This document shows positions 3,293-63,947 of a DNA stretch of 64,000 bases, piece after piece (within the stretch, counting starts at the first letter, position 1; every line of letters begins with the position of its first letter). The DNA is taken from assembly GCA_035699205.1 (NCBI GenBank), contig DASSBA010000011.1, positions 1,339-65,338 of the forward strand. The letters run 5' to 3'. Below the pieces are notes generated by a model. That model saw only the letters and a list, made by a program, of their open reading frames with translations. It did no database searches and was not told the DNA's origin. Source of the DNA: Gemmatimonadales bacterium (GTDB lineage: Bacteria > Gemmatimonadota > Gemmatimonadetes > Gemmatimonadales > GWC2-71-9). The position numbers and the translations under genes were made by a program.

Positions 3293-4416
3293 TGCGCCGC
3301 GTCGTCCACTACGTCGACAGCCACGAGTTCGGGGGCAGCGAGGAGGCTGCACTGCACCTCATGGCGGCCCTGGACCGTGGACGCTGGGAGCCGGTGCTCC
3401 TGCATCATCCCGACCCCGGGGTCGCGCGCCTGGTGGAAGCTGCCGCGGATCTCGGCATTCGCACCCAGGCCGTGCCTCGGCTGGCCCCGCGGGATCGCCT
3501 GGCCGGCACGGCCCGGCTCTGGCGGGCGGTGCGGGCCGAGCGGCCGGCCATTTTTCACGCCCACCTGAGCTGGCCGTTCGCCTGCAAGCACGGGACGCTC
3601 GCCGCCTGGCTCGCGGGTGTGCCGGCACTCGTGGGGACCGCTCAGCTCTACCTCCCGCCGGACGGCACCCGGCAGCCGCGCCTGCTCCTTGGGCTGTTCC
3701 GCCGGATCATCGCCGTGTCCGAGGAGGTGAAGGCCCGCTACGCGCGGGAGCTCCGCGTCCCGGTGCGGAAGCTCGCCGTCGTGCGGAACGCGATCAAGGT
3801 GCCGCCGGCCGGACAGGCGGGCGATCCGGCGCTGCGTGGGGCACTCGTCCGCGGCCGGCCGGACTTCGTCGTGCTCACGGCGGCGCGCCTTCACCCCCAG
3901 AAGGGCCACACGTACCTCCTGTCCGCGGCCGCGCAGGTCCCGGATGCGACATTCGTCTTCGCCGGCGACGGCCCGCTCCGCTCCGCGCTCGAGGCGCAGG
4001 CGCGGGAGCTCGGCATCGCGGATCGGTGCGTCTTCCTCGGGCAGCGCGCGGACGTGCCCGGTCTCCTGGCGGCGGCCGATCTCGTGGTGCTGCCGTCGCT
4101 CTTCGAGGGCCTGCCCGTTTCGGTGCTCGAGGCGATGGCCGCCCAACGGCCGGTCGTGGCCACGGCGATCGGCGGCACCGATGAGGCCGTCACCGCCGAC
4201 CAGACGGGTCTGCTCGTCCCGCCGCGCGATCCCGGCGCCCTGGCGGCGGCCATCCGCCGTCTCCAGGACGACCCCGCGCTTGCCCGCCGCCTCGCCGCAG
4301 CCGGTCGCGAGCGCGTCGAGCGGGAATTCGCCTCCGACGGGACGGCCCTGAGCGTCATGCGGATCTACGATGAGGTGATGGCCGAGCTCCGGAGCGGCGA
4401 TGCCCGCGGGGTCTGA
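3289..4416 (+). CDS. Glycosyltransferase family 4 (GT-B)
   Basis: 375 aa. Motifs: GGSEEAALHL, LTAARLHPQKGHTYLL, LPSLFEGLPVSVLEAMAAQRPVVATAIGGTDEAV (EX7E-type motif). 4-nt overlap with the upstream gene. Confidence 0.87.
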   Translation: MMRRVVHYVDSHEFGGSEEAALHLMAALDRGRWEPVLLHHPDPGVARLVEAAADLGIRTQAVPRLAPRDRLAGTARLWRAVRAERPAIFHAHLSWPFACKHGTLAAWLAGVPALVGTAQLYLPPDGTRQPRLLLGLFRRIIAVSEEVKARYARELRVPVRKLAVVRNAIKVPPAGQAGDPALRGALVRGRPDFVVLTAARLHPQKGHTYLLSAAAQVPDATFVFAGDGPLRSALEAQARELGIADRCVFLGQRADVPGLLAAADLVVLPSLFEGLPVSVLEAMAAQRPVVATAIGGTDEAVTADQTGLLVPPRDPGALAAAIRRLQDDPALARRLAAAGRERVEREFASDGTALSVMRIYDEVMAELRSGDARGV

Positions 4417-22936: not shown

Positions 22937-23202
22937 GCAACTCCTCGGGAGCGTGTCGCCTGCTGCGGACTCAGGAAGGTACGGACGGGAAACGAGCGCG
23001 TCCAGCGCCGGTCGACGTCGGTGAGCGTCGGGCCTGGAGACAACCCCGCCAAGCGCAGCAACTTACATGCGTGCCCGTCCCTCGCCCAATCGCGCGCACG
23101 AGAGCCCCGTGACTGCGCTCACCGCGCCGGTTCACGTCGCGGTGTACTCTCGTGACTCGCAGCCCCGTGACAGGAACCCACTCGAACTGCCGGGAGGCCG
23201 TC

Positions 23203-23352
23203 ATGCTGTGGACCATCTTCATCATCCTGCTGGTGCTCTGGCTGCTGGGCATGGTGTCGTCCTATACCCTCGGCGGCTTCATCCACGTGTTGCTGGTCGT
23301 CGCGATCGTCATCGCGCTCATCCAGTTGATCCAGGGCAGGAGGGTCGTGTGA
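23203..23352 (+). CDS. Small membrane protein, lmo0937-like family
   Basis: 49 aa MLWTIFIILLVLWLLGMVSSYTLGGFIHVLLVVAIVIALIQLIQGRRVV. This matches my memory of the lmo0937-type two-helix miniproteins. Confidence 0.65.
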   Translation: MLWTIFIILLVLWLLGMVSSYTLGGFIHVLLVVAIVIALIQLIQGRRVV

Positions 23353-23570
23353 AGCCTGCCGGCATCGTGGGCATCGTGCTGATCCTGCTCGGCATCGCCG
23401 GACTGGCGTTCGGCGGCTTCTCCTTCACCCACAAGGAGAAGGTGCTCGATCTCGGACCGATCGAGGCCAGCGCGGACAAGAAGGAATCGCTGCCGATTCC
23501 GCCGATCCTCGGCGCGCTGGCGATCGTCGGCGGTGTGGTGCTGGTGGCCGTGAGCGCGCGCCGGGCCTGA
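23349..23570 (+). CDS. Small two-TM membrane protein
   Basis: GTG 23349 overlaps the previous stop (GTGA). Sequence: VKPAGIVGIVLILLGIAGLAFGGFSFTHKEKVLDLGPIEASADKKESLPIPPILGALAIVGGVVLVAVSARRA. Confidence 0.55.
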   Translation: MKPAGIVGIVLILLGIAGLAFGGFSFTHKEKVLDLGPIEASADKKESLPIPPILGALAIVGGVVLVAVSARRA

Positions 23571-23575
23571 GCTGA

Positions 23576-23610
23576 CCACCTCATCCCGAGCGCGGCTCGG
23601 GATGAGGTGG
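23576..23610. repeat. Perfect 16-bp stem / 3-nt loop hairpin (REP-like or terminator) sharing a 13-nt core with the GIY-YIG inverted repeats
   Basis: CCACCTCATCCCGAGC gcg GCTCGGGATGAGGTGG, 6 nt after the stop at 23570. TCATCCCGAGCGC is identical to 61937-61949. Confidence 0.8.
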
Positions 23611-46390: not shown

Positions 46391-47460
46391 CCCGGGTCTT
46401 TCTGGTGGACGACTCGGCGTTCGTCCGCCGGGCGCTGACCCGGGTGCTGGCGCTCGAACCCGCGTTCCGGGTCGTGGGCGAGGCCGCCGGCGGCGCGGAG
46501 GCGCTGGCGAAGATCCCGGCGGCCGATCCCGATCTGGTGACGCTCGACGTGGAGATGCCCGGCATGGACGGGCTGCAGGTGCTGCCGGCTCTGCTCCGCT
46601 GGAAGCCGTCGCTCAAGGTGCTGATGCTCTCCGCCCACACGCGGGACGGCGCGGAGGCCACGGTGGCGGCGCTTGCCGCGGGTGCGGTGGACTTCATCGA
46701 CAAGACCACGTTCAACGTGATGGACCTGGAGTATCTGCGCCGCGAAGTGGTGGACCGGCTCCGGGCGCTCGCGCCGGTCGCGAGGTCGCACGGATCACCC
46801 GCGGCCGTGCCGGCCGCCGCTCCATCCGGCCCGCCGGAGACCGACCTGGCGCGCTGCGAGCTCTGCGTGATCGGCGCATCCACCGGCGGTCCGGCGGCGG
46901 TGCAGCGCATCCTGCAGGCGCTGCCGGCCGGATTCCCGCTTCCCGTGGTGGTGGTGCAGCACATGCCGATCGGGTTCACGCGCCCGTTCGCGCAGCGGCT
47001 GGCCTCCCTGAGCCGCGTGCGCGTGGCCGAGGCGGAGGACGGCGCGCGGCTGGTCCGCGGCACGGCGCTCATCGCGCCGGCGGGACAGCATCTGCGCGTC
47101 TCGCCCAATCTGGCGGTGGTGCTGGCGACGGAGCCGAGCGACGCCAAGCATATCCCCAGCGTGGACGTGACGATGCGGAGCGCTGCCCGCTCGCGGCCGG
47201 GCAAGGTGCTCGGGGTGCTGCTCACCGGGATGGGGGAAGACGGCGCCGAGGGGATGGTGACGATCCGGGCGGGCGGCGGACTGACGATCGCGGAGAGCGA
47301 GTCGAGCTGCGTGGTCTACGGGATGCCGCGCGCGGCGGTGCAGCGGGGTGGCGCGGGATGGGTGCTACCCCTGCCCGAGATCGCCGAGCTGCTGGCAGGG
47401 CTCGGGGCGCCGGGCGGTCAGCGGCCGCTGCCCACTGAATCCCCGATCCAGCGCAGGTAG
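46387..47460 (+). CDS. cheB: Chemotaxis response regulator protein-glutamate methylesterase CheB
   Basis: GTGA overlap with cheR. REC (VFLVDDS, VTLDVEMPGMDG) plus the esterase domain (VIGASTGGP, VVVVQHMP, LTGMGEDG). Confidence 0.92.
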   Translation: MTRVFLVDDSAFVRRALTRVLALEPAFRVVGEAAGGAEALAKIPAADPDLVTLDVEMPGMDGLQVLPALLRWKPSLKVLMLSAHTRDGAEATVAALAAGAVDFIDKTTFNVMDLEYLRREVVDRLRALAPVARSHGSPAAVPAAAPSGPPETDLARCELCVIGASTGGPAAVQRILQALPAGFPLPVVVVQHMPIGFTRPFAQRLASLSRVRVAEAEDGARLVRGTALIAPAGQHLRVSPNLAVVLATEPSDAKHIPSVDVTMRSAARSRPGKVLGVLLTGMGEDGAEGMVTIRAGGGLTIAESESSCVVYGMPRAAVQRGGAGWVLPLPEIAELLAGLGAPGGQRPLPTESPIQRR

Positions 47461-51235: not shown

Positions 51236-51340
51236 TCACCCGCTCTCGGCGGGAGCCAGTTCCCGCGCCGCGTTCCGCAGCCAGCGGATGTTGAACTCCT
51301 CGGCTTCGTAGGCCCGGATGTGGTTCTCGCCGCGGCTCAT
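51236..51340 (-). CDS. Possible 34-aa small protein
   Basis: MSRGENHIRAYEAEEFNIRWLRNAARELAPAESG. 31 of 34 codons end in G/C (my count), which is a coding-like bias. The rest of track ORF 51236-51664 is antisense shadow. Confidence 0.3.
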   Translation of the reverse strand: MSRGENHIRAYEAEEFNIRWLRNAARELAPAESG

Positions 51341-51412
51341 GTTGCACGATGGTGAATCGGGGCTGGGGTGCGTCCGTCGGTGGCGCTGCGCGGAGAAAGT
51401 TCTTCGCCGCGA

Positions 51413-51452
51413 GGCGGCCGGCGGCCGGCGGCCGGCGGCCCCGGCCCCGGCC
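51413..51452. repeat. Simple-sequence repeat (GGCGGCC)x4 then (CCGGCC)x2
   Basis: Read directly from the sequence; it lies 16-55 nt upstream of the ATG at 51468. Confidence 0.9.
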
Positions 51453-51467
51453 CGGAGCGAGCGCGCA

Positions 51468-52283
51468 ATGCCCCCGCTCAGGGTGACCCTCTGGCTCTGC
51501 GCCCTCCTCGCGGTGCCGCTCGACGCCGCCGCGCAGGGCGGGAGCGCTCCGCCCGCCACATTCCGGTACACAGCCACCCAGCTCGACTGCAGCGCCTTCG
51601 AGGAGCATTCCCGTGCCCAGCTCGATGGCCAGACGGGAACCCGCCTGCGGCGCGAGACGCTCACCCGTCACGGGCTGTGGCGCCTGCGCGCGCGGCCGGC
51701 CGGGCGGGCGGTCCAGGTCGAGGCGTGGTACGACTCGCTCGCGCTGAAGAGGGAGAGCGCCGAGGGCACGCTGACGCCCGATACCGACGGGCTGCTCGGC
51801 GGGCGTTATCGGGGAACGCTGTCCGCCACCGGCAAGTATACGGCCCGGGCGCGGCCGTTCATCCCCGACGAGGTGGCGGAGGTCGCGGAGCTCAGTGGCG
51901 CGATGGAGGACCTGCTCCCGCCGCTGCCGCCGGTCGCGCTCGCGGTGGGTCAGCGCTGGTCCGACTCCAGCGGGCTCGAGCTCGAGCGGTTGCCCGACAG
52001 CACGGCGGGACGGCGGGTGATCCGACGTCTCGCGCTCCGCGCGCGCAGCCAAACGAGCCAGGCCACCGTGCGAGGGGACACGATCACGCTCCCGGCGCGC
52101 CAGACCACCATCGAGGAGGGTCAGGTGGATTGGGATCCGACCCAGGGGCTCGTGCGCCGCGATCGTCACATCGTGGTGGAGACCACGGTTCCCGCCGGGG
52201 GGCCACTGCGGCAGCCGCTGCGCTCGCGGCTGGAGCAGGACATCGCGCTGGTGCGGGGACGGGAGGGGTGCGGTGGGCGGTAA
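51468..52283 (+). CDS. Hypothetical secreted protein
   Basis: Track ORF trimmed to MPPLRVTLWLCALLAVPLDAAAQ (signal peptide). No motif recognised. Confidence 0.55.
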   Translation: MPPLRVTLWLCALLAVPLDAAAQGGSAPPATFRYTATQLDCSAFEEHSRAQLDGQTGTRLRRETLTRHGLWRLRARPAGRAVQVEAWYDSLALKRESAEGTLTPDTDGLLGGRYRGTLSATGKYTARARPFIPDEVAEVAELSGAMEDLLPPLPPVALAVGQRWSDSSGLELERLPDSTAGRRVIRRLALRARSQTSQATVRGDTITLPARQTTIEEGQVDWDPTQGLVRRDRHIVVETTVPAGGPLRQPLRSRLEQDIALVRGREGCGGR

Positions 52284-52370
52284 GAGGTAAGAGGCGAAAT
52301 GTGATGATGCCGCGTCCGACGCCGTTTCTTCGCGCCTGCGCCACCGCCCCCGCTCACCGCTCACCGCTCA
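52270..52370. repeat. Inverted heptamer-array element (GCGGTGG GCGGTAA GAGGTAA GAGGCGA ... CCGCCC CCGCTCA x3) spanning a convergent gene junction
   Basis: Left array 52270-52297, 46-nt spacer, right array 52344-70. The same architecture flanks the GIY-YIG cassette at 61793-62358. Both neighbouring stop codons lie inside the arrays. Confidence 0.8.
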
Positions 52371-53142
52371 CAGCCTCCCGCTTTCCTCCCACAAACCGCT
52401 GCTCCGGATCGAACAGGAGCGCCGTCAGCGCGAACGCCAGCAGCATCGCGGCGATCAGCGCGAGCAGGTTCGTCTCCACGGTGAACTCGGACGGCTGGCC
52501 GAAGGCGCGCCGCATGAGGTCGACCTGGTAGGTGACCGGGTTGACCCGCGCGATGAGCCGGAGCGGGGCGGGCATTCCAGCGGTGGGGTAGAGTGCGCCG
52601 CTCACGAAGAGAAGGGGAAAGAGCACGATGTTGATGACCCCGGCGAAGTTCTCCACCGATCGGAGTCGGGAAGCCACCAGGAGGCCGAGCAGGGCGCTGA
52701 CCGCGGACCCCAGTATGAGCACGCCAAAGGCCGCCGTCCACTGTCCGAGCGTCACGGGGAGGATGAAGCCCGCGCAGACCAGCACCACACCCCCCTGGAC
52801 ACTGCCCACCAGCGCCGCGGCGATCGCGCGGCCGGTGAGCACCGCGGGAACTCCGGCCGGGCTCGCGAGCATGAGCCGGAGCATGCCGAACTCGCGGTCG
52901 TACACGGTGCCGATGGCGGTGAGCATGGCGCCGAAGAGAGACGCCATCACGACGATTCCGGGGAACACGAACTGGTAGTACGGCAGCCCGCCCTCGAGCC
53001 GGGCGATGGCATTGTATCCGGTCCCTACCAGCAGCAGCCACATGAACGGGCGGACCAGCCCGCCCAGGAAGCGGCTCGTCTGCCGCGTGGTGCGGGCCAG
53101 GTCACGCGCGACGATGCCGTAGACGGCGCTCCCGGCACTCAC
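52354..53142 (-). CDS. ABC-2 type exporter permease
   Basis: 262 aa with 6 TM segments and a LVRPFMWLLLVG start typical of the ABC-2 family. ATGA-type overlap with the ATPase gene. Confidence 0.85.
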   Translation of the reverse strand: MSAGSAVYGIVARDLARTTRQTSRFLGGLVRPFMWLLLVGTGYNAIARLEGGLPYYQFVFPGIVVMASLFGAMLTAIGTVYDREFGMLRLMLASPAGVPAVLTGRAIAAALVGSVQGGVVLVCAGFILPVTLGQWTAAFGVLILGSAVSALLGLLVASRLRSVENFAGVINIVLFPLLFVSGALYPTAGMPAPLRLIARVNPVTYQVDLMRRAFGQPSEFTVETNLLALIAAMLLAFALTALLFDPEQRFVGGKREAVSGER

Positions 53143-58891: not shown

Positions 58892-60319
58892 CTACGCCTG
58901 AATCCCGTACTTCTTGAGCCGGTACCGCAGCGTGTCCCGGCTGATCCCGAGCCGCTGCGCCGCGCGGGTCTGGTTGCCCTCGGACTCCCGGAGCGCCTGC
59001 TCGATCAGCGCCCGCTCCCACGCCTCCAGGTCCACGCCCGACGGTGGCAGCCCGGGCGTGTCTCGTGCGACCGGGCCGGCAGGCGCCGGCGCCCCCGCGG
59101 GAACGGCGGCCGGCGGCTCCAGACCCGAGGCGCTCGGGGTGAGGTTGCCGAGCGAGAGGTGCTCCACGTCGAGTACCGGCCCGCGGCTCCAGAGCACCGC
59201 CCGCTCGATCACGTGGCTCAGCTCCCGTACGTTGCCCGGCCAGGGATAACCGAGGAGCAGCTCACGCGCGCGCTCGTTTACCTGCCGGACCTGCTTTCCG
59301 TACTTCGCGTTATACCGCTGCAGGTAATGCTCGGCCAGGAGGAGCACGTCGGCGCCGCGCTCCCGGAGCGGGGGCAGCTCCAGGATGATCACCGCCAGCC
59401 GGAAATAGAGGTCCCGGCGGAACTGCTCCCGCTGCGTCTCGCGCTCGAGGTCGCGGTTGGTGGCGGCCAGGATGCGCACGTCGATCTGCCGGTCGCGGAT
59501 CCCGCCGACCCGGCGCACGGTGCGTTCCTCGACCGCCTTGAGCAGCTTGCCCTGGAGGGCCAGCTCGAGGTCGCCGACCTCGTCCAGAAAGAGGAACCCG
59601 CCGTCCGCCGCCTCGAACAGGCCCATGCGCGATTCCTTGGCGTCGGTGAACGCGCCGCGCTCGTGCCCGAACAGCTCCGCCTCCATGAGGGTGGCCGGCA
59701 GGGCCGTGCAGTTGACTTCGATGAACGGCTTCCCCGCGCGCGAGCTGGCCGCATGGATGGTGCGCGCCACCAGTCCCTTGCCGGTGCCGGTCTCGCCGGT
59801 GATCAGCACCGGCGGCGTCTCCTCGAGCCCCGCGATCTGCCGCGCCTGGTCCAGCACCGCCAGCATCGCGGGCGACTCGCCGATCACGCCGGCGAGCGAG
59901 TCGTTCCGCGCGGCGTCCCGGCGCCGGTAATAGCTCAGCTCCTGCTTGAGCTTCGAGTTCTCCCGGGCGCGGTCGGCCAGGAGCTTCAGCTCCTCGAGGT
60001 CCACCGGCTTCTTGAGGTAGTCGAACGCGCCGAGCTTCACCGCTTCGACCGCGCCCTCGATGGTGCCGTGGGCGGTCATGATGATCACCGGGATGGCGGG
60101 ATCGAACTCGCGGATCCGGCGCAGCAGCTCGATGCCGTCCATGCCGGGGAGCCGGACATCGCAGAAGATCACGTCCGGGCGCATCGTCTCGAGCAGCCGG
60201 AGCGCCTGCTCGGCATCCCCCGCCACCTCGGCCTCGTAGCCGGATTCGGACAGGAATGCCTTGATCGCCCGGGCGAGGGTGCGCTCGTCGTCCACGACCA
60301 GCACGGTGGCGGCGCTCAC
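58892..60319 (-). CDS. Sigma-54-dependent response regulator (NtrC family: REC-AAA+-Fis HTH)
   Basis: Track ORF trimmed to GTG 60319 (GTGA overlap with the kinase). Motifs: VLVVDDE, DVRLPGMDG, GETGTGKG, GAFTDA (GAFTGA variant), FLDEVG, C-terminal RAAQRLGISRDTLRYRLKKYG. Confidence 0.93.
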   Translation of the reverse strand: MSAATVLVVDDERTLARAIKAFLSESGYEAEVAGDAEQALRLLETMRPDVIFCDVRLPGMDGIELLRRIREFDPAIPVIIMTAHGTIEGAVEAVKLGAFDYLKKPVDLEELKLLADRARENSKLKQELSYYRRRDAARNDSLAGVIGESPAMLAVLDQARQIAGLEETPPVLITGETGTGKGLVARTIHAASSRAGKPFIEVNCTALPATLMEAELFGHERGAFTDAKESRMGLFEAADGGFLFLDEVGDLELALQGKLLKAVEERTVRRVGGIRDRQIDVRILAATNRDLERETQREQFRRDLYFRLAVIILELPPLRERGADVLLLAEHYLQRYNAKYGKQVRQVNERARELLLGYPWPGNVRELSHVIERAVLWSRGPVLDVEHLSLGNLTPSASGLEPPAAVPAGAPAPAGPVARDTPGLPPSGVDLEAWERALIEQALRESEGNQTRAAQRLGISRDTLRYRLKKYGIQA

Positions 60320-61770
60320 GCGGCGGGCTCCGCCGGCAACCGTACGCGTACGCTGGTGCCGTCGCCCGGGCGGCTCACGATCTCGAGCCGGCCGCCGTTC
60401 TGCTCGACGTACCGTTTCGCGATGGCGAGCCCCAGCCCCGTGCCCTCCTGCCGAGTGGTGAAGAACGGCTCGCACACGGAGGGCAACACCTGCTCGGGGA
60501 TGCCGCCGCCGGTGTCGCTCACCTCGACCACCACGTCGGCCGGGCCGGTTCCGTCGGCGACGAAGGCACCGATCCCGAGCCGTCCGCCCGACGGCATGGC
60601 ATCGAGCGCGTTGGAGACGATTTCCAGCATCGCCTGCTCGAGCTGCATCGGGTCCACCCGCACCTGCGGCAGCGAGGCGGGAACGGTCAGCTCGAGCTGC
60701 ACGCCCTGGTCGCGGATCGGCTGGGCCACGGCGGGGAGGAGGTCCTCGATCAGCCGCGGCAGGCTTTCGGACACCGGATGGAACGGGGCCGGGCGGCTGA
60801 AGCTGAGCAGGTGGGTGATGCGTCGGTCGAGCCGGTCCACCTCCTCGATGATGGCGTCGAGATGCTCGGTGGCGGACGGCGAGGCCGGGTGCCGGCGCAC
60901 CAGCTGCGCGGCGGCCCGCAGGCTGGCCAGCGGGTTACGGAGGCCGTGGGCGACCGCGGCCGACATCTCGCCGATCGACGCCAGCTTCTCCGCCTGCACC
61001 AGCTGCTCCCGCGACTCCCGGAGCTGCCGGGTCATGCTGGCGAGCGCGCGGGCGACGTCGCCGATCTCACCGCTCGAGCTCACCTGGATCGGATGGTCCA
61101 GGTCGCCGGCACCCACGGCCGCCATCGCCCGCGTCAGCTCGCTCACCGGACGGGCCAGGCTTCGCGAGATGAGCCACGAGGCCGCGAGTCCGGCGAGCAG
61201 CGCCAGGACGATGATCGCAACCAGCGTGCGCCCCTCCGCGCGGAGGATCTCTTCCAGCCGGCCGTAGGCACCGCGCACGCTGGACTCCCGGGCGCGACGG
61301 TAGATCTCGCGATTGAGCTGGGTGAGCGCGGGCTGCAGCCGTCCCTTGAGCTCGCGCTGGGCCAGCCGGTAGGCGGTCTCCCGCTGGCCCGCATCGGCGA
61401 GGCGGAACACGCTGTCGGCCACGGCGACGATCTGCCGCTGGATCTGCGCCACTCCGTCGGCCAGCGGGGCCTCCTCCGGGCGAAGCTCGTTCCGCCACCG
61501 GGCCTGCCAGTAGTCCACGACCTCGCCCGTGAGGCGGAACTCCTCGCGCGCGGTATCGTCGAGGCCGCTCAGGTAGCGCCAGACCAGCTCGTTCTGGTCG
61601 AACATGGCGGTCTCGAGCTCGGCATAGGTGCGGGTCCGGGCCATGCTCTCCCCGAGCGCGCTCAGCGCCCGCCGTTCGAGCGCATTACTGCGAATGGCCT
61701 CCGCGCCGACCAGCAGCGCGGGCAGGGCCATGAGGGAGAAGCCGAAGAGGAGCTTGCGCTGGAAGGTCAC
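60316..61770 (-). CDS. Sensor histidine kinase (periplasmic helical sensor, HAMP, HisKA, HATPase)
   Basis: Two TM segments, HAMP, H-box SAAVAHGLRNPL, N-box SNALDAM, G-boxes DTGGGI and GTGLGLAI. Confidence 0.9.
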   Translation of the reverse strand: MTFQRKLLFGFSLMALPALLVGAEAIRSNALERRALSALGESMARTRTYAELETAMFDQNELVWRYLSGLDDTAREEFRLTGEVVDYWQARWRNELRPEEAPLADGVAQIQRQIVAVADSVFRLADAGQRETAYRLAQRELKGRLQPALTQLNREIYRRARESSVRGAYGRLEEILRAEGRTLVAIIVLALLAGLAASWLISRSLARPVSELTRAMAAVGAGDLDHPIQVSSSGEIGDVARALASMTRQLRESREQLVQAEKLASIGEMSAAVAHGLRNPLASLRAAAQLVRRHPASPSATEHLDAIIEEVDRLDRRITHLLSFSRPAPFHPVSESLPRLIEDLLPAVAQPIRDQGVQLELTVPASLPQVRVDPMQLEQAMLEIVSNALDAMPSGGRLGIGAFVADGTGPADVVVEVSDTGGGIPEQVLPSVCEPFFTTRQEGTGLGLAIAKRYVEQNGGRLEIVSRPGDGTSVRVRLPAEPAA

Positions 61771-61792
61771 CGGGGAAAGATACGGGCGAGAC

Positions 61793-61827
61793 GCGGTAAG
61801 CGGTAAGCGGTAAGCGGTGAGCGGCAG
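61793..61827. repeat. Heptamer array GCGGTAA x3, GCGGTGA, GCGGCAG
   Basis: Read directly from the sequence. It is the reverse complement of the array at 62324-62358. Confidence 0.9.
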
Positions 61828-61830
61828 CGG

Positions 61831-61930
61831 GTGCTGGCCGCGGTGCGCCGGTGCTGGCCGCGGTGCGCCGGTGCTGGTCGCGGTGCGCCGGTGCTGGTCG
61901 CGGTGCGCCGGTGCTGGCCGCGGTGCGCCG
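61831..61930. repeat. Five head-to-tail copies of a 20-bp unit GTGCTGGCCGCGGTGCGCCG
   Basis: Copies at 61831, 61851, 61871, 61891 and 61911. Copies 3 and 4 carry GGTC instead of GGCC. There are no spacers. Confidence 0.95.
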
Positions 61931-61932
61931 GT

Positions 61933-62304
61933 ACTGTCATCCCGAGCGCAGCGAGGGATCTTGCTCGCATGCGCTCCGACCGCGGCTTCTTCGTGTACAT
62001 CCTCAGCAGTACGTCACGAGTCCTCTATACAGGCGTCACATCCGACCTCATCCGGCGAATGCACGAGCATCGTGAGGGAGCCATTTCCGGATTCACCCGC
62101 AGGTACGCCGTGCATCGGCTGGTATTCTTCGAGCGCACGCCGAACGTGGCCGCCGCAGTTGCGCGTGAGCGGGAAATCAAAGGCTGGACGAGGGCGAAGA
62201 AGGTCCGCTTGATCGAGTCGGCCAACGCGGGCTGGATAGATCTGGCCGCGGATTGGTTCGAGGCATTCCCCGAGTAGATCCCTCGCTGCGCTCGGGATGA
62301 CAGT
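61933..62304 (+). mobile_element. Candidate selfish cassette: GIY-YIG nuclease gene bracketed by a perfect 29-bp inverted repeat
   Basis: IR-L ACTGTCATCCCGAGCGCAGCGAGGGATCT (61933-61961) is the exact reverse complement of 62276-62304. Mobility is inferred from architecture only. Confidence 0.4.
61969..62277 (+). CDS. Small stand-alone GIY-YIG nuclease family protein (YhbQ/UPF0213-like)
   Basis: Track ORF 61831-62277 trimmed to MRSDRGFFVYILSSTSRVLYTGVTSDLIRRMHEHREG...RLVFFERTPNVAAAVAREREIKGWTRAKK. GFFVYIL...LYTGVT is the GIY-x10-YIG-type motif, with a conserved R and E downstream. Confidence 0.85.
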   Translation: MRSDRGFFVYILSSTSRVLYTGVTSDLIRRMHEHREGAISGFTRRYAVHRLVFFERTPNVAAAVAREREIKGWTRAKKVRLIESANAGWIDLAADWFEAFPE

Positions 62305-62323
62305 TGACAGTTCCCAAGTACCT

Positions 62324-62358
62324 CCGCCCACCGCTCACCGCTCACCGCTCACCGCTCA
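62324..62358. repeat. Heptamer array CCGCCCA, CCGCTCA x4
   Basis: Read directly from the sequence; it ends 5 nt before the MFS stop codon. Confidence 0.9.
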
Positions 62359-62363
62359 CCGCG

Positions 62364-63947
62364 TCAGTGCGCCGCCGCACCTCCGCGGATCTTCCCGGTC
62401 CGGAACAGCACCAGCAGCGGCAGCGCGGCGGCGAAGGTGATGCCCATGGTGAGGAAGACCTTCTCGAACGCCACCATCGAGGACTGCTGGCGGAGGGTGG
62501 CCTCGAGCAGGGCGTGGGCTTTCTGCTGCGCCTCGGCGAGGGTGCCGCCGAGCGCGAGCAGGCGGCGCGTGGCCTGCTCCAGCCAGTCCAATGCCGCCGG
62601 GTTCGACGGCGCGAGGTGCGGCAGCAGCGCCTCGCGGCTCTGCTCGCCGAACCGGCTGAGCAGGGTGGCGGTGACCGCAATGCCGAAGCTGCCGCCGAGC
62701 TGGCGCGAGAGGTTGAAGAGCCCGGTGCCCTGCGCGAGCTGGTCCGGCCGGAGGTCGGCCACCGCGACACCGGTGAGCGGCACGAAGATGAAGCCGAGCC
62801 CCACGCCGCGGAGGACCATCGGCCAGAACAGGTCGGCCATCCCGGTATCGGTGGTGAAGTGGAAGTGCAGCCACATGGACCAGAAGAAGAGCAGCACGCC
62901 GATGGTGATGAGCACTCGCGCGTCCACTCGCTGGCCGAGGCGGCCCATCGCGGCCATGGTGATCGCGGCCGCGATCGCCCCGGGCAGGATGACCTTGCCC
63001 GTGTCCCAGGCGCTGTAGCCCAGCAGGTTCTGCAGGAAGACCGGCAGCGCGAACACGCTGGCGTACAGCGCGAAGCCGAGCACGACGCCGAAGATGACGC
63101 CGCCGGCAAGCTGCCGGTTCCGGAGAATGCGCAGGTCCACGACCGGGTGCCGGGTCCGGAGCTCGTGCCAGACGAACGCCACCAGGCCGAGGCCGGCGAG
63201 CACCGCCTCCACCACGATCTCGCGCGACTGGAACCAATCCTTGCTCTCGCCCCGCTCGAGCAGGATCTGCAGGGAGCCGATGCCTACGATCAGGAGCGCC
63301 AGTCCCGGCCAGTCCATGCCGGTGCGCGCCACCGCATGGCCGGGCTCGGGCACGCTGCGCCACGTCATCACGGCGGCCACGAGGCCGAGCGGCACGTTGA
63401 TGTAGAAGATCCAGGGCCAGGAGTAGTTGTCGGTGATCCAGCCGCCGAGCGTGGGCCCGAGGGTCGGCCCGACCATGACGCCCATGCCGAAGATGGCCAT
63501 CGCCTTGGCCCGCTCCTGCAGGGGGAACACGTCGAACAGGATCGCCTGTGCCGTGCTGATCAGCGCGCCGCCACCGATCCCCTGGATCACGCGCCAGAAC
63601 ACCAGCCCTTCGAGCGAGCGGGCCGCCCCGCAGCAGAACGATGCCAGGGTGAACAGGAGGATCGAGCCGGTGTAGTAGTTCCGCCGGCCCAGCCGGTCGG
63701 AGAACCAGCTCGTGAGCGGGAGCACGATCACGTTGGCCACGATGTAGCCGGTGCTCACCCAGGCGACCTCGTCGAGCGTGGCCCCCAGATTTCCCATCAT
63801 GTGCGGAATGGCGACGTTGACGATGCTGGTGTCCACCAGCTCGAGCACGCTGGCCAGCGTCACGGCAAAGGCGATCAGGTAGCGCGAGCGGTAGATCTGC
63901 TCGCGGCTCCGCGGCCGGGGCAGCGCGGGCAGCGCCAGGGTCGTCAT
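62364..63947 (-). CDS. emrB: MFS drug efflux transporter, DHA2 (EmrB/QacA, 14-TMS) family
   Basis: 527 aa. Motifs: LDTSIVNVAIPHM, LTSWFSDRLGRR (motif A), RVIQGIGGGALI. Confidence 0.92.
   Translation of the reverse strand: MTTLALPALPRPRSREQIYRSRYLIAFAVTLASVLELVDTSIVNVAIPHMMGNLGATLDEVAWVSTGYIVANVIVLPLTSWFSDRLGRRNYYTGSILLFTLASFCCGAARSLEGLVFWRVIQGIGGGALISTAQAILFDVFPLQERAKAMAIFGMGVMVGPTLGPTLGGWITDNYSWPWIFYINVPLGLVAAVMTWRSVPEPGHAVARTGMDWPGLALLIVGIGSLQILLERGESKDWFQSREIVVEAVLAGLGLVAFVWHELRTRHPVVDLRILRNRQLAGGVIFGVVLGFALYASVFALPVFLQNLLGYSAWDTGKVILPGAIAAAITMAAMGRLGQRVDARVLITIGVLLFFWSMWLHFHFTTDTGMADLFWPMVLRGVGLGFIFVPLTGVAVADLRPDQLAQGTGLFNLSRQLGGSFGIAVTATLLSRFGEQSREALLPHLAPSNPAALDWLEQATRRLLALGGTLAEAQQKAHALLEATLRQQSSMVAFEKVFLTMGITFAAALPLLVLFRTGKIRGGAAAH

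Follow-up and report, generated by a model that had tools for sequence, protein, structure and literature searches.

A probable Ssn-family GIY-YIG nuclease gene between variant hairpin repeats in a Gemmatimonadales genome

An ssn-like gene enclosed by oriented hairpins

The 64-kb stretch of the Gemmatimonadales contig DASSBA010000011.1 analysed here (hereafter, the window) contains, between a histidine kinase (HK) gene and a gene for a transporter of the major facilitator superfamily (MFS), a small open reading frame (ORF) that is enclosed by the two arms, IR-L and IR-R, of a perfect inverted repeat (Table 1). Judging from sequence comparison, the product of this ORF is most probably a member of the Ssn family of endonucleases specific for single-stranded DNA (ssDNA), with the two arms being its cognate Ssn-related hairpin motifs (SRM). 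About 0.55 kb of window DNA, including the gene and both arms, is missing from a close relative. The first-pass annotation, which was made from the sequence of the window alone, had correctly placed the 102-codon GIY-YIG ORF and the 29-bp inverted repeat, with its 7-nt spacing to the ATG and 2-nt overlap with the TAG, and had compared the arrangement with that of repetitive extragenic palindromes (REP) and RAYT transposases, a comparison that is borne out in layout. It erred in knowing of no described REP-associated GIY-YIG system: the NTS-ssnA-NTS architecture was published in 2025 (PMC11893778), so that the locus belongs to an already known kind of system and is not a new kind.

The Ssn family was defined by Chenal et al. 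(2025, Nat Commun 16:2388; PMC11893778) and consists of single-domain GIY-YIG enzymes of roughly 94 amino acids (CDD cd10448, GIY-YIG_unchar_3). The Neisseria enzyme SsnA binds and cuts the NTS repeat (CGTCATTCCCGCGMAVGCGGGAATCYRG, a longer form of dRS3) as ssDNA only, a few nucleotides upstream of the repeat, and does not cut double-stranded DNA (dsDNA); cutting is abolished in the Y6A, Y17A and E64A mutants, and in the repeat itself the three nucleotides that stand upstream of its palindrome weigh most in cleavage and the C right after it in binding. Cleavage has been established for four homologues, knockout of ssnA raises transformation by NTS-bearing DNA about five-fold, and among ssnA homologues 71% have at least one SRM nearby and 42% have SRM on both sides. 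The same authors compared the NTS-ssnA-NTS layout to IS200/IS605 and REP/RAYT (PMC11893778). Our literature search found no later papers on the Ssn family and no other papers joining GIY-YIG proteins with extragenic palindromes, and string searches of the literature for the arm sequence returned nothing relevant.

The window protein, for which a protein search found 247 relatives, contains PF01541 (residues 8-78) as its sole Pfam domain and thus has the size (about 90-110 amino acids) and the lack of an extra DNA-binding domain that characterise Ssn enzymes. Its predicted catalytic residues are Y10, Y20, R30, H34, E67 and N86; the first five of these columns are invariant across 20 aligned homologues, and Y10, Y20 and E67 align with Y6, Y17 and E64 of SsnA. 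The two checks on the protein that the first-pass annotation had proposed, namely for the Pfam domain and for the catalytic Tyr, Arg and Glu, therefore both came out positive. The AlphaFold2 model (pLDDT 86.7) is one compact domain with the GIY-YIG fold, with BH0048 (1zg2) and Slx1 as the best matches in the Protein Data Bank (PDB) and the N-terminal domain of UvrC also matched. The core fold is shared with UPF0213/YhbQ proteins (BH0048, PDB 1zg2; EF2693, 1ywl) and with Slx1, but Slx1 carries a RING domain in addition and has branched dsDNA as its substrate, and the similarity to UPF0213 is weak. In pairwise comparisons, the window protein scored 89 bits against the gonococcal orthologue of SsnA (48% identity, E 9e-30) and 34 bits against BH0048 (E 3e-7); with this gonococcal protein (L210) taken as a proxy for N. 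meningitidis SsnA, the similarity is well within the threshold of E < 1e-10 used by Chenal et al. Given the SsnA score far above that of BH0048, the window protein probably belongs with SsnA rather than with UPF0213, for whose members no bracketing by cognate hairpins is known. NCBIfam, PADLOC and PHROGs gave zero matches to the window protein, which is accordingly no catalogued defence or phage protein.

The arms are complementary at all 29 positions, are separated by 314 nt, and have the anatomy of an SRM, reading TGTC-ATCCC...GGGAT-C. Within IR-L, the tag TGTC (61935-61938) is followed by the half-stem ATCCC (61939-61943), which pairs with GGGAT (61955-61959), the apical part GA-GC-GCA-GC-GA lies between the two, and the C after the palindrome is at 61960; the internal stem, as had been noted from the sequence, is present in each arm. 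The locus thus resembles the published Ssn loci in having a single-domain GIY-YIG protein of about 100 amino acids with the catalytic Tyr, Tyr and Glu conserved, and in the oriented, inverted hairpins on both sides of the gene, each with a 5' (C/T)GTC tag, a palindrome starting with A-T and a C thereafter. It differs in the stem of the window-type arm, which is not paired throughout but interrupted by two tandem G.A mismatches and capped by a GNA triloop; the host group, Gemmatimonadales, is not mentioned in the main text of PMC11893778.

Table 1. Features of the window discussed in the text
Feature	Coordinates	Strand	Remarks
ssn-like gene	61969-62277	+	102-aa single-domain GIY-YIG nuclease (predicted); Pfam PF01541, E 8e-13
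IR-L, SRM/NTS-like hairpin arm	61933-61961	+	29 nt; ends 7 nt before ATG
IR-R, same arm inverted, tag outward	62276-62304	-	overlaps TAG stop by 2 nt
Tandem duplication TGACAGT-TGACAGT	62298-62311	+	outer edge of IR-R
Segment reduced to 22 nt in L214	61775-62350		576 nt; cassette and expanded flanking arrays
Left heptamer array, GCGGTAA/GCGGTGA x4.6	61793-61824	+	half of host palindromic hairpin
20-bp tandem repeat GGTGCTGGCCGCGGTGCGCC, x5.3	61830-61936	+	left side only; last unit enters outer edge of IR-L
Right heptamer array, CCGCTCA x5.6	62324-62362	+	other half of host palindrome
Histidine kinase (HAMP/HisKA)	60316-61770	-	neighbour gene
MFS transporter	62364-63947	-	neighbour gene; right heptamer array abuts its stop codon
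Perfect palindrome CCACCTCATCCCGAGCGCGGCTCGGGATGAGGTGG	23576-23610		holds exact 13-mer TCATCCCGAGCGC; CCTC tag like arms of L002

Dispersal and conservation of the arms

An exact scan with TCATCCYGAGCNNAGCGARGGA of one genome per species returned at least 120 arm-bearing stretches, from Acidobacteriota, Chloroflexota, Gemmatimonadota, Verrucomicrobiota, Bacteroidota, Bacillota, Patescibacteria, Planctomycetota, several proteobacterial classes and others. The arm type is conserved across many phyla, mostly as gene-less head-to-head dimers. The statistics that follow are based on the 191 arm copies in these stretches and hold among the matches listed. The consensus is (T)GTC-ATCCY-GA-GC-GNA-GC-GA-RGGAT-C-T, and its edges are sharp. 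Of the 191 copies, 184 keep the G in the tag and 182 the C that follows the palindrome, although both positions lie outside the search pattern; because these are positions critical for cleavage and binding in PMC11893778, the conservation mirrors the mutational map of the experimentally studied repeat. The first position of the tag is T in 147 copies and C in 28, the loop N is free, and stem positions 7 and 19 covary (T:A in 141 copies, C:G in 47, with 2 exceptions). Head-to-head dimers, with variable spacers of 10-100 nt, make up 40 of the 51 close pairs of arms; up to 5 copies occur per 8 kb, and a relative of the gene is encoded in 5 of the 120 stretches. In these other genomes the repeat is thus dispersed without the gene, mostly in extragenic positions, as the published Ssn repeats are; the window itself holds the two arms and one related palindrome. 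Among viral contigs, there were 110 arm-bearing stretches, none with an ssn-like gene, and hence no sign of phage carriage. One IMG/VR contig of 9.4 kb (L279) carries seven arm copies, all on the same strand.

Association of gene and arms at other loci

Arms of this type flank homologues of the window gene at the unrelated loci L001, L002, L121, L123 and L205-L208, and at L001, L002, L123, L205 and L208 they stand on both sides of the gene, as in the window. The gene for P0004 (L001; 82% identical) has unrelated neighbours and identical arms, at the same distances from the start and stop codons; that for P0075 (L002; 65% identical) is found in another context again, with the same arm carrying a CCTC tag; and the same arm-gene-arm architecture is seen for P0002, P0008 and P0016 and at L123. 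The identical protein P0008 is encoded at two loci, where the similarity stops exactly at the outer end of IR-R. Some homologues are translated through the right arm, which results in tails such as IPRCARDDS or DPSLRSG.

A metagenome scan with the 20-homologue alignment, in which 581 of 600 candidates were confirmed, returned 80 loci for analysis. Arms that fit the strict consensus are present on both sides of the gene in 17 of these loci and on one side only in 18 more; in most of the remaining loci, an unbiased inverted-repeat search identified variant arms in which the TGTCA start is kept, the stems covary (ATTCC/GGAAT, ATTTC/GAAAT, ACCCT/AGGGT) and the apical part is sometimes larger. A finder for a GTC tag followed by a hairpin and a C yielded, for the 80 loci, 3.11 hits per kb within 220 nt of the gene, 0.29 per kb farther away and 0.08 per kb in shuffled sequences. 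Tagged hairpins are thus concentrated beside these genes, and the first-pass proposal of a stand-alone GIY-YIG nuclease tied to palindromic repeats is upheld by the recurrence of the same arms at unrelated loci, by their gene-less dispersal in many genomes and by a homologous enzyme that binds such hairpins and cuts ssDNA beside them.

Relatives were also found by tblastn, for which the database was a 7.3-Gb plasmid collection with some chromosome-sized records, in species known for CGTC repeats. The N. gonorrhoeae ORF (L210, E 3e-18) is part of an NTS/dRS3 array, and Y6, Y17 and E64 are present in its product; the gene of A. lipoferum 4B lies between two head-to-head dimers of CGTCATCCCCGCGAAGGCGGGGATCC; and each of the homologues from S. 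meliloti and from N. aromaticivorans has hairpins of its own on either side, with a CCTC or CGTC tag. On plasmid AZO_p3 of A. lipoferum 4B (L211, 255375-255991), the ssn-like gene and its flanking CGTC-hairpin dimers are found between sufB and sufC. The suf operon is normally contiguous at this position, and the unit is likely a second insertion, in this case in a cultured, fully sequenced strain. A comparison of L209 with L208, which represent the same locus with an identical gene and identical 260 nt upstream, shows that the right arm of L209 is heavily mutated from the stop codon onwards (ATGCCACGCATGGCGGGGGGTGACA), which reflects either the decay of one arm at the level of strains or a metagenome contig of chimeric origin.

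Relationship to tagged REPs and to REP/RAYT systems

Di Nocera, De Gregorio and Rocco (2013; PMC3733652) described a superfamily of REPs with a CGTC tag, sometimes replaced by TGTC or CCTC, whose stems start with A-T pairs and which have short tails and mostly form head-to-head dimers; Neisseria dRS3 is included, and the repeats are said to be "not associated to transposase genes". Four families, mostly from Alphaproteobacteria, have 8-9-bp stems and 4-5-nt loops. The window-type arms agree with this description in the terminal tag (TGTC), the A-T start of the stem, the unpaired short tail and the head-to-head arrangement of the dimers, and differ from the families of PMC3733652 in that neither this arm variant nor its phylum range is described there and no link to GIY-YIG genes is made. 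The Ssn paper (PMC11893778), for its part, does not cite PMC3733652. The present locus connects the Ssn repeats with this older, enzyme-less superfamily of CGTC-tagged REPs, a link that is made in neither paper.

The likeness to REP/RAYT (REPtron) and IS200/IS605 systems extends to a small nuclease gene between inverted hairpins, gene-less dimers (REPIN/BIME-like), the recognition, predicted for the window protein, of a folded ssDNA hairpin together with an adjacent short tag, and the absence of target-site duplications. In contrast to these systems, where an HUH/Y1 transposase acts through a covalent 5'-phosphotyrosine intermediate, the enzyme here belongs to the hydrolytic GIY-YIG class, and the tag is (C/T)GTC, not the GTAG of the REPs. 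With a GIY-YIG enzyme in place of the tyrosine transposase and TGTC in place of GTAG, the locus is no REPtron, and the resemblance is one of layout only.

Filled and empty alleles at the MFS-HK junction

Orthologues of the HK gene are abundant, which allows the junction to be compared among relatives. In the close relative L214, HK is 92% identical and the MFS protein has 491 identical residues of about 527, and the distance from the MFS stop to the HK start is 40 nt (GGCTCGGTGAGCGGTACCGCGCACCGCTTATGTTTGTCCC) versus 593 nt in the window. In the BLASTN alignment, L214 292-1945 corresponds to window 64000-62351 (90.5%) and L214 1968-4923 to window 61774-58806 (88%), collinearly, with the segment given in Table 1 in between. 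Given the 40-nt spacer of L214, the cassette is an insertion/deletion polymorphism. Four more relatives (HK 83-87% identical) also lack it, so that the comparison of orthologous HK-MFS intergenic regions, which the first-pass annotation had suggested, reveals five cassette-free alleles, and a gain in the lineage of the window would be the more parsimonious scenario. This pair of filled and empty alleles in close relatives makes the mobility of the unit testable.

The core insert (about 61935-62317) is located between GGTAC (61930-61934) and GTACC (62318-62322), where L214 has GGTACC, and maps to the middle of the short palindrome GCGGTACCGC; the order in the window is GGTAC, then TGTCA...CCCAA, then GTACC. 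Such a junction could have arisen by duplication of the 4 bp GTAC or by AC...GT being inserted flush at GGT^ACC. Around 77 head-to-head units, no target-site duplications were detected (duplications of at least 3 nt in 2.6% versus 2.1% in the control), and we therefore attach no weight to the GTAC repeat of the window. The flanks of the head-to-head units show a slight enrichment of palindromes, with at least 4 complementary bases in 7.8% of the cases versus 0.9% in the control. The idea of a fixed junction, 3 nt 5' of the tag in every insertion, was considered and rejected, the break between L205 and L206 lying directly at the arm edge.

A probable host hairpin around the cassette

The inverted heptamer arrays outside the arms and the 20-bp repeats confined to the left side, both reported at first pass, are confirmed (Table 1); the idea that the heptamers form a second layer of the cassette is contradicted by three observations. 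First, an inverted heptamer array without a cassette (GCGGTGG GCGGTAA GAGGTAA ... CACCGCT CACCGCT CACAGC, with a spacer of about 55 nt) occurs at 52270-52376, between the convergent ORFs 51318-52283 (+) and 52354-53142 (-), and ssDNA of this region (52255-52395, 141 nt) folds at -34 kcal/mol (z -2.3). Second, the relatives L215 and L217 have different heptamer palindromes (GGTCGTA / CGACCTA) in the spacer upstream of HK. Third, the empty allele of L214 keeps GGTGAGCGG, a one-copy miniature of the heptamer array; the first half of the 20-bp repeat likewise matches a single CGCGCACCGC of that allele. The two arrays of the window, which together make up a 35-nt inverted repeat of 91% (61790-61824 / 62331-62365), appear to be a lineage-typical intergenic hairpin of the host with the cassette inserted at its centre. 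Inclusion of the arrays in the mobile unit, which was considered since L001 and L204 also have them, is accordingly regarded as less probable than an independent host palindrome. The cassettes of the window, L001 and L204 are all located at the centre of GCGGTGA-type arrays; these three loci hint at a preference for hairpin apices, which would fit an ssDNA-specific enzyme.

Possible mechanism and alternative explanations

By homology with SsnA, the window protein would bind the folded arm solely when the tag-bearing strand is single-stranded, a state that could arise in replication, repair, DNA uptake, conjugation or cruciform extrusion. Recognition would involve the GTC tag on the 5' side of the stem together with the C on its 3' side, and the strand would be hydrolysed at a distance of a few nucleotides 5' of the tag. 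As the two arms are inverted and their tags point outward, one cut per strand is predicted, just beyond the ends of the unit. The SRM-ssn-SRM unit behaves as a discrete cassette resembling an insertion sequence (IS), here residing in the apex of a pre-existing heptamer hairpin between the MFS and HK genes. A more far-reaching conjecture, which we consider rather doubtful, is that such units are mobile and are driven, through chemistry not yet described, by a hydrolytic GIY-YIG ssDNA nuclease, without target duplication and with single-stranded hairpin apices as sites, and that the arms with G.A mismatches and GNA loops mark a large, so far unrecognised branch that supplies the enzyme for the CGTC/TGTC-tagged REPs.

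Several observations weigh against the interpretation of the locus as an Ssn unit that was gained by insertion. The polarity of the indel is based on parsimony over five relatives, and the miniature of the flanking arrays in the empty allele is also readable as a deletion scar: since that allele has single copies of the units amplified in the window, a precise loss is a possible scenario as well. A single arm folds weakly as DNA under standard parameters (-3.5 kcal/mol, z +0.4; compare -8.9 kcal/mol, z -3.2 for the Neisseria NTS), so that the case for the arm stem is built on covariation and homology, not on energy. An exceptional stability of the arm, expected from d(GCGAAGC)-type minihairpins, was dropped as an argument, the arm energy being no better than that of shuffles. 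The 64 kb of the window hold just two arms and one possible relic, without an evident repeat population like that of Neisseria, where copies number in the hundreds; REP-like amplification is thus not seen in this stretch. Finally, the published SRM string, HGTCWYN(0-2)YYVSBRHN(0-5)WNVSBRGN(0-2)RNCYNB, matches neither of the window arms nor the arm consensus. It does match the Neisseria and Azospirillum arms and recovers 2 of the 80 loci of the clade of the window gene, a failure that is due to the G.A mismatch positions in the arms, and we accordingly place the locus in Ssn with a variant arm type. The published definition of SRM hence misses a whole clade of Ssn genes, those with G.A-mismatch, GNA-triloop arms, and the published figures of 71% and 42% for association with repeats are probably underestimates. 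Any further Ssn enzyme, with its hairpin, might also serve as a reagent to cut ssDNA at specific sites.

One rival explanation, which we consider rather unlikely, is that of an autonomous IS-like element, in which the GIY-YIG enzyme itself cuts the arms on ssDNA, moves or copies the cassette and multiplies the gene-less dimers as a functional analogue of RAYT or of TnpA from IS200/IS605. The existence of filled and empty alleles, the occurrence of one identical gene at two loci where similarity ends at the arm edge, the predominance, among the matches listed, of head-to-head pairs with REPIN-like spacers (40 of 51; 10-100 nt), the lack of target-site duplications as in IS200/IS605 and REPINs, and the tandem duplications at the outer edges of arms, where the cut is predicted, are all in line with it, and the mobility hypothesis was raised, and left open, by the authors of the Ssn study (PMC11893778). 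On the other side, single-strand peel-and-paste transposition does not agree with inverted arms, for which the cuts are predicted to fall on opposite strands; vertical inheritance through considerable divergence at the L205/L208/L123 locus and the low copy number in the window also speak against it. GIY-YIG enzymes are hydrolases, and we know of none with a covalent intermediate or strand-transfer chemistry.

A homing-type selfish gene, whose nuclease cuts gene-less arms or palindromic sites so that repair copies the gene in, with the repeats being the target and not the product, appears unlikely. Free-standing GIY-YIG homing endonucleases exist, the gene invariably fills the exact space between both arms of a head-to-head dimer, gene-less dimers are common, and the cassette is at the centre of a GCGGTGA-type heptamer palindrome in three Gemmatimonadales loci. 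However, SsnA leaves dsDNA uncut (PMC11893778), and there would thus be no double-strand break for homing repair; moreover, the arms offer just about 27 bp of homology, and the flanks of the dimers are mostly not palindromic (see the 7.8% above).

Still less probable, and in our view highly improbable, is the alternative offered by the first-pass annotation, a housekeeping nuclease of the UPF0213/YhbQ type that is gated by a long-range hairpin, with the arms as a private regulatory repeat. This reading draws on the predicted burial of the translation start in the mRNA (see below) and on BH0048 being the best match of solved structure, but it is at odds with the arms in at least 120 stretches of many phyla, with the gene in only 5 of the 120 among the matches listed, with the absence of the gene from the orthologous site in five relatives, and with a protein far nearer to SsnA than to BH0048 (89 versus 34 bits). 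That the inverted repeat around the small ORF arose by chance, or is an artefact of assembly, is refuted, to the point of having virtually no probability, by the 29/29 complementarity (0.00 expected) and by the same architecture in independent assemblies from several sources.

Expression of the ssn-like gene

The sole Shine-Dalgarno (SD)-like run, GAGGGA (61953-61958), is located inside IR-L, 10 nt before the ATG. In the predicted RNA fold of 61925-62315, IR-L pairs with IR-R over the full length and buries both the SD and the ATG (minimum free energy -183.1 kcal/mol, z -4.3), in agreement with the earlier suggestion that pairing of the arms in a transcript would sequester the SD. Since the SD is in the 3' half of IR-L, folding of the arm, IR-L/IR-R pairing in the mRNA or binding of the protein to the DNA should each hold expression low, and expression of the gene is, on these models, likely to be low or conditional; autoregulation through binding of the protein to the arm would be speculation. 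Scans of 61600-62500 for sigma-70 promoters and intrinsic terminators found none, and Rfam at a permissive threshold found in 61000-63000 just a chance miRNA-like match inside the MFS gene.

Minor observations on the repeats

The 25-nt core has no further copy in the 64 kb beyond the two arms (0.00 expected). The 13-nt core of the arms, TCATCCCGAGCGC, recurs exactly at one more place, inside the perfect palindrome at 23576-23610. This palindrome, which directly follows the stop of the ORF 23067-23570 (+), resembles two arm halves fused head to head and may be a relic of a collapsed dimer or of a deleted cassette; it is possibly an ordinary terminator, which we favour less. The published SRM string matches once at 61762-61793 (-), overlapping the HK start codon beside the cassette, and again at 47211-47242; both matches are probably due to chance, since shuffles of the window give 0-3. 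Elsewhere, at about 3850-3985 of L029, an arm-like segment (CTTGTCCTGAGCGCAGCGAAGGAAGA) stands in place of the GNA loop of another arm, and at about 395-450 of L047 a partial arm ending in ...GAGC is followed by a full arm, the interruption being exactly at the apical loop.

Duplications at the edges of arms, such as that of TGACAGT in the window, were also noted at other loci: GATGACACC is present twice in L206 (gene end 318), TGACAGTTGC is repeated in L204 (gene end 786), and L205 has, just downstream of the gene (which ends at 3309), an array of five 21-bp units derived from a partial arm (CTCCCTCGCTGCGCGGCCTCG). Because the arm edges are the expected sites of Ssn cutting, repeated nick-and-repair is a possible cause of these duplications.

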